Shown: positions 9,112 to 18,294, counted from the first letter of the stretch. The stretch is 64,000 bases of DNA from Candidatus Gottesmanbacteria bacterium (GCA_963790805.1 CAWBPL010000002.1:576696-640695), one strand, 5' to 3'. Made by a program: numbers and translations. The notes: generated by a model not told the origin, from the sequence alone.

Positions 9112-12100
9112 TTAGTTAATGATCCACCAGTTGAAGTGGACATCATCCTGTTGTGGCGCGGTGATGCCGACAATGAATTCTCCCTGCTGTTTATCAACGA
9201 CGTAGAGCGCGTTTGGAGTGGGGGATGTGGGTGTGATGAAAATAAGCGATTCGTCCGTGATGCTGTCATTTAATACCGTAACGCTGGATTGTCCGGCGGG
9301 AAGAATACTTGAGCCGATGGATGGTGCGATAACGCCGGAAGCTGAAGATTCTGTCGGTGTAACCGGAAGATGAAGTTTTTTCGCAAGAAGATTTGATACG
9401 TCCAGCGTTCCGCTCACCGTTGCGTTTCCATTGGCGTCGAATGATGTGACGGTGTAGCCGCCATGCCCCTGAAGAAGCAGTTGTCCGAACGATGATGTCA
9501 AATTTCCGGATGGAGAGGCAGAAATTGATGCAGTTTGTGTATTGTTTGATAGATTTATTGTCAAATCACTGCCAAGCGGCGAAAGCACATCGGTTGCAAT
9601 GCCACCCGTCACCGACAAATTTCCGTTCAGTGCCAGATTGCCGTTTATGGTTATTCCGCCTAGCGGATTGATAAGGAGAGTGCCATCCATAATATCCAGC
9701 GAGGCGAGTTTACTCCTTTGAATATACAATGTGTCTCCGTAGGTTTCGATTCCCTGATTGTCAACATGGATTAAGCCGCCGACAACAAGTGAGCCGCCGA
9801 TCGTTGTCTGGCCCAAGAACGTGTCGCCAAGCGCGGTTAAAGACTGGGTCAAGATAATATCTTTATTGAGCGTCGCAATTTCCTGATTATCTCCCGACAG
9901 TGTGCCGCCCAATGCCGAAAGAGCACTTGTCGATGCCGTATTACCGGTATCAAAAATTGTTGTTGCGACAGAGGGCGATGGTATCGCCGAAGGAGTAGAG
10001 GATAATCCGTTTGTTACGCTCAACTCTCCAAATGGCGTGACGATACGGTCTGCATAGAGTGTGCCGGAGATTGATGCATCTGAGCTGGTAAGACTATTCG
10101 TTTGTATAACAGAAGATATCAATGTACCAGCAACTGATGCATTCTGTATCTGTATGGATTGTGCCGTGATTTGGCCGGAGAATGTCGCATTACCCAGTGT
10201 ATCAAATGTGGCAGATGGTGTGCCTTCTTTATTATATATACCAAATGTTTGCGTTGGCGCAAGCTTTACAGCGATGCCGCCGGTTGCCGAGAGGGGAGAG
10301 ATGATGTCGGTATAAAGTTCTCCGATATCAGCAACAGGTGAGACCAGAGACGTGTTAATTGTCAGGGTATCGGCAATCAATTGTTGTGTTTGTATGGCTC
10401 CTGCCTTCAATAGTCCTGCCGCAAGATCAGAGAACGCTCCAACCTGGTTAACAACCGATTGGGTTCCGTCACTTGCCATCTGGACTATCTGGTAGACGGC
10501 ACTGTTTAGCGTATTCGTAAGCGTGCTTGCGCTGGAGGCCACCGACTGAATGATACTGAAACTGTTAAGGTCCGTTAAAATTCCCTGCGGGTTATACCAT
10601 GAGGGATTTACGAGAACGAGTATGCTGCCGGTGCAGGGGGAAGATTGTTGACTGTTCGGTGTGGGCGTTGCTGAGTCGGATGCAATAGGTGAAATTATGT
10701 CGGGCGTTGGCGTCGGACAACTGAACGCTTGCAGGGCTTTTCCGATCAGCTGTCCTTCGTGGGTTGCTTTCATGCCGACCCCGGGAACGTCAGATGACGT
10801 AATGGAATCACCGGGTAAAATTACTCCATTTTCCGTTGTGACATTGACCGGTACGCGTCCCGCCAAAGCAACGGCGGGGCGATTCGGACTGTTGCGGCTT
10901 GCTGCATTAAAATTTAAATCAACCAGATTATTATCCATGACGATGCCCGGATTGGTGCTGACGATGCCGATGAGTTTTGGATCGTAGGGCGTGCGCGCAA
11001 GCGATACAGTTGCCGATCCGCTGGCGTCCACCGGCGAGGCAATAGACAGCACGTCGCCCGGATACACCGGTTCCGTTGAATCGTACCGTTCGGCGATATC
11101 TGCCCCGCCGGTACTGCTTGCCCATGTGGTGCCGTAACGGGTGATGTAGGTATTTGTTTTCGTGCTCCCGCGCGCAAAATCGAATTTGAACGTGAGATAC
11201 GATCCGGTATTGGGGAAGGAGAAAGTGTATTCCCGCTCCGGCGGCGTCTGGCCCGAATCGGTCATAATCCATTCCCCCAATACCCAGGCGTTGTTACTGG
11301 TACAGAGCGCTTGGGTTGCATAGTTGTTACACGCGTACACGTTGATGCCGTTACTGGTATCTGAGGAATCGGTGACAAACGATGTCCAAAGGTAAGCAAA
11401 CGCGGTCGCGGAATTGAGCGTTTGCGTGGCAGAGAAGAGCGAACCGGTGAGGTTATTGGAGTTTGTGTCGGGAGACATAGCCGCAACACCGCTTGTTGCC
11501 GACCCCACGGCCTCCAGATTATAACCTACAGCCAAAGAATCCGTATCATCGTTGGCCAAATGCGTTCCTCCCGTTGGGGCGTTGGTTGTCTTGTCGTATG
11601 TTTTGATATTCGTGTCGGAATTTAAATCAATCTTACTCACTCTTCCATTGGTTGTGTCGTTTGTGCCAACGTACATAAATTGATTGTTATAATCGGGTCT
11701 TGCGTCTCCAACAACTGCCGTGGAACCTCCAAGTTGTTGATTTGTATCCGCTCCGCCTCCGCCCAAGGTTGTTGCATGCGATTGCAACGCGCGGGAACCA
11801 ACATCATACATATGTTTGATTTGAGAAGAGGAAAGAGCGGTGGCGGTTATAAACGGTTCATCAATTGCTCCTGTAAAATTATTTGCTCCTAAATAATTAG
11901 CACCAATTCTCAAAGTTCCGGATGTTGCTGCCGCTCCTGACTGATTATATGTTCCTTGCGCTGCAAGAATGCCATCAATATAGAGACTTATTCCGTTTGT
12001 GTTTGCTGTTCCGTTGAATGTGCAGACTAGATGGTGCCATACCCCTGTATTTAATGCTGTGGAAGCAGCAACCGAAACAGAGCCGATGCCATTGTTTGCG

Positions 12101-18100: not shown

Positions 18101-18294
18101 TGAGGCGATTGAAGTTGCGGGACGGACTTAATAGACTGAAGCGTTTCTTTTTGAAACAAATGAACACCATTTTGATCAACGGTTGAAGTAATTTTTCCGG
18201 CTTTTTCCCATCGGCGGATGGTGTCTTTGGAGACGCCGAGGAGTTTCGATGCCTGACTTATAGTAAAATATTTTTGCGGATACGTATCATTCAT
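9112..18294 (-). CDS. giant membrane-tethered surface protein: 2x MerR/excisionase-type HTH, TM helix, collagen-like G-X-T region, propeller-like repeats, LamG domain and a beta-helix-like C-terminus
   Basis: One frame is uninterrupted for 9,183 nt, from ATG at 18294 to TAA at 9112-9114. Recognisable motifs run along its whole length (see sub-features). ORFs in other frames are short shadows. Confidence 0.9.
11800..12315 (-). other. LamG / concanavalin-A-like lectin domain
   Basis: [20 protein letters not shown]...SYGAWVKL...[11 protein letters not shown]...[14 protein letters not shown]...GTLRIGAN...[24 protein letters not shown]. This is the classic LamG pattern (W..., WHH.., LY.DG, lrIGa, f.G.iDE..i....LS..ei). 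Confidence 0.75.
14680..15640 (-). repeat. about seven ~45-aa repeats (xVxYAG....IYRCxxxxxxCxxxGNW....hxhxhD), beta-propeller-like
   Basis: Repeat units include [106 protein letters not shown] and [27 protein letters not shown]. Each unit has a conserved Cys pair. Confidence 0.6.
16360..17448 (-). repeat. collagen-like G-X-Y triplet region (~363 aa, mostly GPT/GAT/GxT) with 9-nt periodicity
   Basis: The protein reads [22 protein letters not shown]...[19 protein letters not shown] with one register break (GIVGGGGFG). The antisense frames give PVAPV-type shadow ORFs (16418-16960 and 17012-17563). Confidence 0.9.
17545..17622 (-). other. single transmembrane helix (aa ~225-250) separating the HTH region from the extracytoplasmic part
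   Basis: Hydrophobic stretch [28 protein letters not shown]. There is no N-terminal signal peptide, so a type-II (N-in) topology is inferred. Confidence 0.7.
17941..18270 (-). other. two tandem MerR/excisionase-type helix-turn-helix motifs (aa ~9-58 and ~72-118)
   Basis: [39 protein letters not shown] and [39 protein letters not shown]. Both follow the pattern (S/T)xxT(I/L)xRWxxxG(K/L)I seen in HTH_17/MerR-type DNA-binding domains. Confidence 0.75.

Follow-up and report, generated by a model that had tools for sequence, protein, structure and literature searches.

A conserved family of patescibacterial fibre proteins as a possible direct link between cell surface and DNA

What could a bacterium do with a single polypeptide that has DNA-binding-type modules at one end and a giant surface fibre at the other? 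The question is raised by a gene in a 64,000-nucleotide stretch of a Candidatus Gottesmanbacteria genome (GCA_963790805.1, CAWBPL010000002.1:576696-640695; hereafter the window, with positions counted from its first letter), whose 3,060 codons specify two helix-turn-helix (HTH) motifs, a linker, one transmembrane (TM) helix and a very large ectodomain. Bacteria of the candidate phyla radiation (CPR), or Patescibacteria, are ultra-small, very abundant, mostly uncultured, and thought to live attached to other cells; to our knowledge, almost nothing is known of how they sense or hold their partners, or of how they manage regulation with few regulators. The family to which this protein belongs is conserved and previously undescribed, and its members may connect DNA with the cell surface in one molecule.

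The gene and its family

A first-pass annotation, made from the sequence without database searches, had described a 3,060-residue HTH-TM-ectodomain protein at this position, and on this point it was right: the open reading frame (ORF) read from the window is single, uninterrupted and ATG-started, an identical protein (P0007; relatives are cited here by protein, P, and locus, L, identifiers) is found in a public collection on a 1.22-Mb contig, and the same architecture recurs in many independent assemblies. It might nevertheless be suspected that a separate small regulator gene has been fused to a surface gene by sequencing or assembly error, or that the true start is Met227, a residue at the beginning of the hydrophobic helix; collagen repeats do give assembly breaks and frameshifts in relatives (L001, L002). 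Against such an artefact, the ORF is contiguous in dozens of independent assemblies, with HTH, linker, TM helix and collagen in frame. A downstream start, which the first-pass annotation had itself named as a way in which it might be wrong, found no support either: P0001, P0003 and P0013 lack an equivalent of Met227, and because this residue is not conserved an internal start does not explain the architecture. Every locus compared has its promoter and ~100 nt of leader ahead of the first HTH codons. The fusion-artefact reading is effectively refuted, and the protein architecture is confirmed as real and conserved across the family.

The extent of that family was gauged with a profile search, exhaustive over 1.84 billion cluster representatives, the best 150 matches being scanned with a purpose-built hidden Markov model of the HTH unit. 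Among these 150, the unit is present in 89; in nearly all matches that are 190 residues or longer, the number of units is exactly two and a single hydrophobic helix comes after them, located 85-345 residues from the N-terminus; and ~27 of the HTH-TM relatives also end in a terminal domain with the motif F-[ND]-W-[WFL]-[IVM]-[IV]-N. The profile also drew many collagen-only proteins. The first-pass annotation had proposed looking in databases for the same HTH-TM-collagen architecture, and relatives were indeed found: a tandem HTH, one TM helix and a fibre are combined in dozens of clusters at 50% identity, whose names are those of Gottesmanbacteria, Woesebacteria or other Patescibacteria. A word-indexed search returned 6 N-terminal and 14 C-terminal relatives, mostly fragments; for one of the six a source is named (Candidatus Gottesmanbacteria), and two of the six run through the TM helix into collagen before a contig or frame break. 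Scans of genomes and metagenomes added 14 and ~21 close loci, respectively, the named ones belonging to Gottesmanbacteria, Woesebacteria or the “Patescibacteria group”; in the 4-kb genome flanks the ORFs mostly run off the end, and they exceed 1,000 aa in 11 of 14 cases. Two complete chromosomes (L009, L012) have one locus each, and the family appears to be present about once per genome.

Databases give the relatives unspecific names (“MerR family DNA-binding transcriptional regulator”, “excisionase family DNA binding protein”), and no paper describing this family or architecture was found in the literature. The remark in the first-pass annotation that no characterised example on this scale was known thus holds for the family, but not for the combination of a DNA-binding domain (DBD) with a TM helix, which is a catalogued class (PMC10269533). 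Viral contigs yielded single excisionase-like HTH matches only, and not the full architecture; a phage origin of the locus was therefore set aside.

Some features of the database records themselves deserve mention. The G-X-T repeats break assemblies: in L001 the collagen-coding region (11118-13644) is full of frameshifts, and in L002 the contig ends in collagen. Database entries are therefore mostly truncated, and the size of the family is probably underestimated. Metagenome-assembled genome records entitled “uncultured Gammaproteobacteria” or “Pseudomonadales” (L003, L006, L007, L010, L015, L016 and others) hold the family gene and share its promoter with Gottesmanbacteria-named records; their titles look like placeholder taxonomy. 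There are also arrays of winged-HTH (wHTH) units, in P0008 (623 aa; eight units, one TM helix and a short tail), P0045 (1,015 aa; at least nine units and no TM helix), P0067 and P0093, a pattern of sequence suggesting that multivalent or filament-like DNA binding may be used more widely in this group.

The winged-HTH pair, the membrane helix and the fibre

Are the N-terminal motifs of a kind that binds DNA? The Pfam models MerR, MerR_1 and HTH_17 match two stretches, aa 9-52 and aa 75-120, where a MerR/excisionase-type pair had been proposed on first reading (E-values on the whole protein 5.5e-19, 2.3e-16 and 9.9e-12; 2.1e-21 on the N-terminus alone), and the MerR and MerR_1 scores exceed the Pfam gathering scores. 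The MerR_1 alignment is limited to profile positions 2-47 of 69. An AlphaFold2 (AF2) model of aa 1-135, which rests on a 38-sequence alignment, has two winged-HTH units at confidence scores (pLDDT) above 90 with a disordered segment between them; after each wing it gives short helices only (aa 49-56 and 113-121), and then the disordered linker. The best solved structure in a Foldseek comparison is DNA-bound BldC (40% identity, root-mean-square deviation (rmsd) 1.5 A, 50 residues), followed by the RacA DNA-binding domain (5i44, rmsd 2.0 A) and then by NmlR, GlnR and the tandem-HTH protein TraN. With phmmer, unit 2 is matched to BldC (6ama, E 5.8e-7) over BldC residues 13-65, through the terminal P-x-Q-R, and the best NCBIfam regulator model is HTH_BldC (1.4e-12), with RacA as a weak match (3.6e-4).

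BldC is a monomer without the MerR coiled coil, and forms head-to-tail oligomers on direct repeats; its phosphate contacts are made by T27, T29, K33 and W31, its base contacts by R30 and K26, and H46, R47 and R48 are its minor-groove residues (PMC5859096). In the window protein, unit 2 retains all of the mapped BldC contact residues (T89, R92, W93, K95, R109 and R110), with RTAGGARRF as its wing and PYQR as its C-terminal motif, and the recognition helix of unit 1 is intact (T25, R28, W29, K31). When the BldC contact positions are mapped onto 76 tandem-HTH family members, T27 is kept in 74 first and 73 second units and W31 in 73 and 71; R30 is kept in 49 and 54, with N instead in 23 and 17, respectively; and the wing arginines R47 (51 and 74) and R48 (39 and 65) are found in more second than first units. 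The net charge of the HTH region is +10. Sequence comparison and modelling together support the view that the N-terminal modules are genuine DNA-binding-type winged HTHs, closest to BldC.

Another line of evidence comes from relatives in which something else stands in their place. P0025, P0030, P0032, P0095 and P0134 have one TM helix and a collagen-rich ectodomain, and are without MerR-type units; all five start with Phage_int_SAM, the core-binding DNA-binding domain of tyrosine recombinases (E 3.4e-11 in P0134, 1.7e-9 in P0095 and 7.9e-7 in P0030; weak in P0025 and P0032), and all except P0134 have a FNWWIIN-type end. Because an unrelated DNA-binding fold takes the same cytoplasmic position in these relatives, DNA binding would seem to be the selected property; two unrelated folds are otherwise hard to explain, which argues for DNA, or at least nucleic acid, as the partner.

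Between the HTH pair and the fibre is an acidic, proline-rich linker of 97 residues (18 Pro; 5 K/R vs. 12 D/E), probably disordered to judge by this composition; across the family, 15-205 aa separate HTH and TM helix. The lone TM helix placed by the first-pass annotation at aa ~225-250 is clear in a 19-residue Kyte-Doolittle scan, whose sole peak above 1.4 is 2.44 at aa 226-244 (runner-up 1.31), and in the alignment it is followed by a subfamily juxtamembrane motif, QIsGIxxGxQRxxPxxA. No hydrophobic stretch precedes aa 226, in keeping with the earlier statement that there is no signal peptide. All 20 Cys are located after aa 916, as 10 short-range pairs, which fits an extracytoplasmic ectodomain. 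The absence of a signal peptide, the folded basic domain of 128 residues before the helix, this distribution of Cys and the types of the C-terminal modules make an N-in/C-out (type II) topology probable. A further juxtamembrane motif, [VIL]-L-G-[AETVMSG], is found 10-70 aa past the TM helix in 24 of 47 family members (e.g. P0013, P0019, P0073, P0102, P0139), vs. 2.9 expected by shuffling; the window protein is without it. It could be a processing or packing site.

The ectodomain begins with a collagen-like stalk, the G-X-T repeat of the first-pass annotation, which Pfam also recognises (Table 1): 121 G-X-Y triplets, 85 of which have Thr at Y, make up two unbroken runs (aa 283-414 and 417-647). 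If folded as a triple helix, this stalk of 363 residues would be ~100 nm long at the standard collagen geometry of ~0.29 nm per residue. In the G/T/N/S-rich region that follows, a motif is found that recurs in relatives (P0073, P0086) as GNVGIGTTSP repeats, which we take to be tail-fibre-like. Beyond this are seven repeats of ~48 aa, six of them with a C-x5-6-C pair and the seventh Cys-less. Of the Cys-paired propeller-like repeats claimed earlier, the repeats and their Cys pairs exist, but the propeller fold is plausible only, the profile matches being weak: against PDB, the repeat profile finds designed Kelch-type 6-bladed propellers (E 0.0034) and RACK1 (E 0.12), and a Pfam scan of the segment finds no match. 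The LamG domain named on first reading is present. The ectodomain had no PHROG match, and Pfam on seven segments gave nothing significant. Long beta-helix-like repeats had also been proposed for the C-terminal part and were not confirmed; the AF2 model of this part (aa 2390-3060) is confident at aa ~2399-2530 and ~2990-3060 only.

The first of these confident regions (pLDDT ~90) resembles a phage tailspike. In Foldseek, 3suc and 3gqh come out on top (probability 1.00; E 1.7e-3 and 2.4e-3); these are the phi29 gp12 tailspike in its pre-mature form and the auto-chaperone fragment from its C-terminus. Further fold matches are to cyanophage, Klebsiella-phage and Sf6 tailspikes and to pyocin fibres. 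In the family profile, DIAERYDS... is aligned with DFAEYFES...KIIGVISETAG, the first residues of the released gp12 fragment (PDB profile E 0.13): the motif D-I-A-E-R-Y opens the gp12-type domain, with a putative autocleavage site between A2398 and D2399. We take it that gp12 cleaves itself just before that Asp, and that catalysis in peptidase family G2 depends on the Asp and the Glu of D-x-A-E as a pair; Pfam Peptidase_G2 had no match in aa 2395-2600 at E<=10. By its modelled fold, aa 2399-2565 is a gp12-type intramolecular chaperone, followed by another ~490 residues. Domains of this kind fold trimeric fibres, and because one is present here together with collagen repeats, the fibre is probably trimeric.

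The region after the chaperone domain is predicted with low confidence, and its sequence is conserved with relatives (motif LGxTxLGxTTIAGxLxVDG). The second confident region, a beta-sandwich, is by the model a conserved membrane-distal tip and a signature of the family. Elsewhere the ectodomains of relatives are variable, with collagen, GNVGIGTTSP repeats, a SDERLKK motif, or a domain starting A-D-L-A-E-Y; SDERLKK (P0009, P0013, P0078, P0086) stands at the place equivalent to the gp12-type domain, and is presumably the S74-type intramolecular-chaperone motif.

The upstream region and possible roles

If the modules do bind DNA, is there a site for them? Upstream regions were aligned at the -35 element, for 17 and then for ~38 orthologous loci, and their architecture is constant even where the proteins are 30-50% identical. 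The promoter is of sigma-70 type (family -10 consensus T(G/T)TAAT) and precedes a leader of ~85-125 nt. Above the -35, at a distance of 40 nt, is a box with the consensus YATAGTTTAGCC; an automated measurement gave exactly this distance in 9 of 21 metagenome loci, and elsewhere the anchored alignments agree. About 35 bp above this box is a second, TATAG box (~18501-18512 (-) in the window).

In the ~38 loci the leader contains a short series of direct repeats, two or three in number and spaced 10-11 bp apart, ~20-45 nt past the -10. The series of the window, GCAAACacccGCAAACcctatGCAA, is an array that occurs once in 64 kb vs. 0.03 expected. A chain of at least three exact 4-mers at 10-11 bp is present in 9 of 30 non-redundant leaders (mean of 0.24 and maximum of 3 in shuffles), and with five other spacings in 0-1 leaders. 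The repeat word is clade-dependent (CAAA/GCAAAC in most loci, GACA, GGACA), its position and period are fixed, and all seven loci whose unit 1 helix reads T[IL]QRW have GACA as the word. By sequence, the array is a candidate head-to-tail wHTH binding site, of which three repeats would match three chains. The locus of a SAM-type paralogue (L058, 3001-7312) has neither the promoter box nor the leader repeats.

Both upstream boxes are constant in clades that differ in unit 1 helix and leader repeats, and HTH unit 2 is likewise constant; hence the idea that unit 2 might read the box, and unit 1 the leader repeats. There is no second good copy of the upstream box in the window, and therefore no evidence for a local regulon covering two neighbours discussed below, the M23 peptidase gene and the giant gene.

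Other elements near the start were considered and dropped. The palindrome CCGAATTCGG, offered as an operator by the first-pass annotation, is present (18326-18335), but is not conserved in the closest orthologous loci, L001 and L002, and was rejected; what stands of that interpretation is a conserved membrane-tethered fibre with DNA-binding-type wHTHs. As a conserved word, GCAAACCCTA is confined to the closest loci, and its 7 matches in the window, vs. 3.4 expected, are no enrichment. A leader hairpin, TTTGC-TTC-GCAAA, loses its pairing in L008, L011 and L003, and is kept as a sequence motif, not as a structure; an Rfam scan of the leader found nothing. Between the M23 and fibre genes of L001 (9391-9449) there are ~6-7 copies of an 8-bp tandem repeat, ATTTGTAG, which is absent from the window.

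The reading we favour is held tentatively, as one that could well be right and may as easily prove wrong: a DNA-binding membrane protein of the transmembrane transcriptional regulator (TTR) class, mounted on a trimeric tail-fibre-like fibre, whose BldC-like modules bind the repeats in the leader of the gene itself, transcription thereby being coupled to the production or assembly of the fibre. Outside, going outward from the membrane, there would be the collagen stalk of ~100 nm, a Cys-stapled propeller-like domain and a LamG lectin-like domain; then the gp12-type chaperone, driving the folding of the trimer, further stalk, and the terminal beta-sandwich. Inside, each chain would have two BldC-like wHTH units on a flexible linker of ~100 residues, so that a trimer would place six DNA-binding modules just under the membrane. 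These could bind direct repeats head-to-tail, as BldC does, with the array of two to three repeats in the gene's own leader as the likeliest target, and in this way the expression of the gene, and possibly that of other genes, might respond to how much fibre there is or to its state of assembly. For topology, trimerization, DNA binding, target identity and regulatory outcome alike, this is what we infer from the features described above. There is firm precedent for regulators that work on DNA while bound to the membrane, e.g. CadC and HigX.

A bolder version seems unlikely: in an ultra-small, probably host-attached bacterium, the state of a trimeric adhesin more than 100 nm long (its assembly, its engagement with a partner cell, or gp12-type autocleavage) would be relayed via the TM helices, one in each chain, to six modules on a three-repeat operator, one repeat per chain, contact thereby reprogramming transcription or docking the chromosome without kinase, second messenger or soluble factor. 
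Should the leader repeats indeed be what the modules of this family bind, no simpler connection between surface and genome could be imagined, and the protein would also be a natural case of components known from phage tail fibres, the collagen stalk and the intramolecular chaperone, put to new use in the membrane of a cell. With a fragment of 135 residues and a site of 25 bp, concrete tools are at hand for studying regulation in these organisms by experiment for the first time.

A number of findings weigh against the favoured reading. The wing of unit 1, VDQNGVHLF, is non-basic and without the RR pair, a loss that holds for this subfamily; the NCBIfam HTH_BldC score (47.2 bits) is below the curated cut-off of 77; and P0008 and P0045 resemble architectural DNA binders more than specific regulators. 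The positive-inside rule, with counts of N-in for 31 proteins, the opposite for 12 and neutral for 8, the window protein being neutral, favours N-in weakly, and too weakly to decide. L078 and L079, with helix TVRRW and repeat GGACA, break a simple helix-word code, and since the loci are homologous the repeat counts are not independent: both repeat conservation and helix-repeat correlation rest on few independent events. The repeats could also serve another factor, or the mRNA. More generally, architecture alone is no proof of transcription control, because the survey of DBD+TM proteins includes RodZ-type proteins (PMC10269533).

What else might such a protein do? One possibility, the alternative already named by the first-pass annotation, is that it tethers the nucleoid to the envelope, the tandem wHTHs binding DNA with low specificity or at many sites and anchoring the chromosome to the membrane beneath the fibre, much as RacA does for the Bacillus chromosome at the pole, with no transcriptional role. 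RacA is both among the best structural matches and, weakly, among the NCBIfam matches given above, and it is grouped with Xis as an architectural relative in the BldC paper (PMC5859096); 3-9 HTH units are present in P0008, P0045 and P0069, and P0008 has one TM helix, eight units and almost no ectodomain; the domain that can replace the HTH pair, a recombinase core-binding domain, is another architectural-type binder; and a long flexible linker would be suited to reaching the nucleoid. Non-specific binding would, however, leave unexplained a leader array that is fixed in position, keeps its period and varies by clade, and the equivalent of BldC R30 is conserved or systematically R/N, as expected for specific recognition. 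With apparently about one locus per genome, the benefit of a single tether is also hard to see, and this role, though a serious rival, is rather doubtful.

Quite unlikely is release of the HTH fragment as a soluble regulator by regulated intramembrane proteolysis in response to ligand or contact, also suggested by the first-pass annotation: there is no linked protease gene in the window and no sequence feature marking a cleavage site, and on so long a linker the HTHs can get to DNA without being released. The TM helix is Gly-rich, as is typical of site-2-protease substrates, and either of the conserved outer juxtamembrane motifs, QIxGIxxGxQRxxPxxA and [VIL]LG[AETVMSG], could be a processing site, although they could equally be structural. 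Very unlikely, finally, is an adaptor like RodZ, in which the HTH units would bind a protein (e.g. a cytoskeletal or secretion component) and position or assemble the fibre without binding DNA. RodZ has the same HTH-TM-periplasmic layout, and RodZ-type proteins (HTH_25 + DUF4115) are counted among DBD+TM proteins (PMC10269533); the HTH here, however, is of MerR/BldC type and not XRE/HTH_25, DUF4115 is absent, conservation is strong at the positions that contact DNA, wing arginines among them, and a shared protein partner would hardly explain the swap to another DNA-binding fold.

Genomic surroundings and relation to known systems

Table 1. The fibre gene, the parts of its product (aa, residues) and its upstream elements, in window positions
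Feature	Positions	Strand	Basis or remark
Whole gene: tandem wHTH, linker, TM helix, fibre ectodomain; single-pass membrane protein	9112..18294	-	Stop included; identical protein P0007
wHTH unit 1 (aa 9-52), MerR/HTH_17-type	18139..18270	-	Pfam; AF2 pLDDT >90; residue mapping
wHTH unit 2 (aa 74-128), complete, BldC-like	17911..18075	-	phmmer, NCBIfam, Foldseek, contact residues
Acidic proline-rich linker (aa 129-225)	17620..17910	-	Composition
Single TM helix (aa 226-253)	17536..17619	-	Hydropathy peak 2.44; juxtamembrane motif in alignment
Collagen-like stalk (aa 283-647)	16354..17448	-	Pfam Collagen 3.5e-33; triplet count; PDB collagen and BclA matches
G/T/N/S-rich region (aa 648-890)	15625..16353	-	No Pfam/PHROG match; sequence
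Seven ~48-aa repeats (aa ~891-1215), Kelch/propeller-like (plausible)	14650..15624	-	Repeat alignment; weak profile matches
Beta-rich region (aa 1216-2005)	12280..14649	-	No Pfam match
LamG/concanavalin-A-like lectin domain (aa 2006-2160)	11815..12279	-	Pfam Laminin_G_3 5.6e-21
phi29 gp12-type (peptidase-G2-like) intramolecular-chaperone domain (aa 2399-2565)	10600..11100	-	AF2, Foldseek, profile alignment
Predicted helical (possibly coiled-coil) segment and low-confidence beta-rich stalk (aa 2566-2989)	9328..10599	-	AF2
C-terminal beta-sandwich (aa 2990-3060), end FNWWIIN	9115..9327	-	AF2 pLDDT ~90; conserved in relatives
Sigma-70-type promoter: -35 TTGACA (18435-18430), 17-nt spacer, -10 TTTAAT (18412-18407)	18407..18435	-	Kept in ~38 loci
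Upstream box CATAGTTTAGCTT (family consensus YATAGTTTAGCC)	18463..18475	-	Lone exact match in window
Leader direct repeats GCAAACacccGCAAACcctatGCAA, spacing 10 and 11 bp, candidate operator	18356..18380	-	Unique in 64 kb

The gene is chromosomal, with Rho, two tRNA-Ala genes and envelope genes nearby. Divergently upstream is a gene for a LysM-M23 peptidase, an arrangement kept in 8 of the 16 closest loci; next to come, as a rule, is the N-terminal part of a giant gene, which has 12,323 codons here and 20,250 residues in L002. The giant ORF of the window (20792-57763 (+), listed start GTG) has a hydrophobic anchor after ~55 residues and then Cys-containing short repeats, with a Hint/intein-like stretch, VGDTVLSFDP...VHN, visible by eye, and its N-terminus is conserved beside the M23 gene in other loci. 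The tRNA-Ala genes, with anticodons GGC (19920-19991 (+)) and CGC (20125-20198 (+)), lie between the M23 and giant genes.

Downstream of the fibre gene there are two polytopic membrane proteins, 7649-9085 (-) (478 aa), after a gap of 26 nt, and 6114-7652 (-) (512 aa), overlapping the former by 4 nt; they may be co-transcribed with the fibre gene. Neither has a Pfam match even at E<=5, and it is a guess that they are GT-C-type glycosyltransferases for the S/T-rich fibre. A Rho homologue (4431-6113) has an N-terminal extension of ~180 residues ahead of its RNA-binding domain. The window as a whole is rich in envelope genes, including those for a DUF2298 membrane protein (727-3078 (+)), a large protein with a weakly YfhO-like end (58401-61034 (-)), an NPCBM-domain protein (61240-63141 (-)) and a polysaccharide deacetylase (3292-4197 (-)).

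How does the fibre protein compare with systems already known? With Streptomyces BldC (6AMA/6AMK) it shares a winged HTH without the MerR coiled-coil or effector domain, the same contacts (T27, R30, W31, K33, R47, R48), and a direct-repeat array, the target in BldC and found here in the gene's own leader. BldC, however, is a soluble monomer of 68 residues, whereas here two units are fused to a TM helix and an ectodomain of 2,800 residues, and the BldC repeat is AATTNNNN(C), vs. GCAAAC here. Being below the model cut-off, not stand-alone and membrane-tethered, the protein is not a strict member of the BldC family; by analogy, it most likely works like BldC at the DNA. Canonical MerR regulators also have an N-terminal MerR-type winged HTH, but with a long coiled coil and an effector domain, both missing here, and they use a palindromic operator with a 19-20 bp spacer, in contrast to direct repeats and a 17-nt spacer; these differences set the protein apart from canonical MerR regulators.

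RacA of Bacillus subtilis (5I44), a good structural match, likewise has a MerR-like wHTH and attaches DNA to the envelope; it reaches the membrane via DivIVA, and has a coiled coil, no TM helix and no ectodomain. RodZ is similar in its order of HTH, single TM helix and extracytoplasmic domain, and in being N-in, but it is built from an XRE-type HTH_25 and DUF4115, neither of which had a Pfam match here (whole protein at E<=1, segments at E<=10); the HTH of RodZ binds MreB rather than DNA.

On the outer side, the resemblance to phage tailspikes and fibres (phi29 gp12, peptidase G2, endosialidase-type S74) lies in the gp12 auto-chaperone fold, with D-x-A-E-Y/F at the start of the fragment. In gp12, however, the chaperone domain is C-terminal, whereas here ~490 residues lie beyond it and the protein is encoded on the chromosome and anchored in the membrane. 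Collagen-like surface proteins (Scl1/Scl2, BclA, Lcl) are like it in having a long G-X-T stalk, presumed to be a triple helix, that projects a distal globular part; the NCBIfam collagen-adhesin models score 120-137 bits against cut-offs of 325-500. Those proteins have signal peptides and are attached by LPXTG or to the exosporium, in contrast to the N-terminal TM anchor with a DNA-binding tail found here, and to the FNWWIIN end without a sorting signal.

By its layout, the whole protein belongs with the TTRs (ToxR, TcpP, CadC, HigX), which have a cytoplasmic DNA-binding domain, a single TM helix and an extracytoplasmic domain. ToxR and CadC have an OmpR-type wHTH and small periplasmic sensor domains; Trans_reg_C, the Pfam model for OmpR/PhoB-type wHTHs, had no match in the window protein. 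HigX is a recent, experimentally studied membrane regulator of envelope genes. The catalogue of Demey et al. (2023) holds 50,302 DBD+TM proteins, 56% of them single-pass, with 386 of MerR, 350 of MerR_1 and 151 of HTH_17 type and 12 with Laminin_G_3; none is listed with collagen, and the main text of the survey has no mention of Patescibacteria (PMC10269533). With a recognised DNA-binding domain and at least one TM helix in one polypeptide, the window protein falls under the definition of a TTR, but one with a giant, fibrous, tail-fibre-like ectodomain in place of a ligand sensor.

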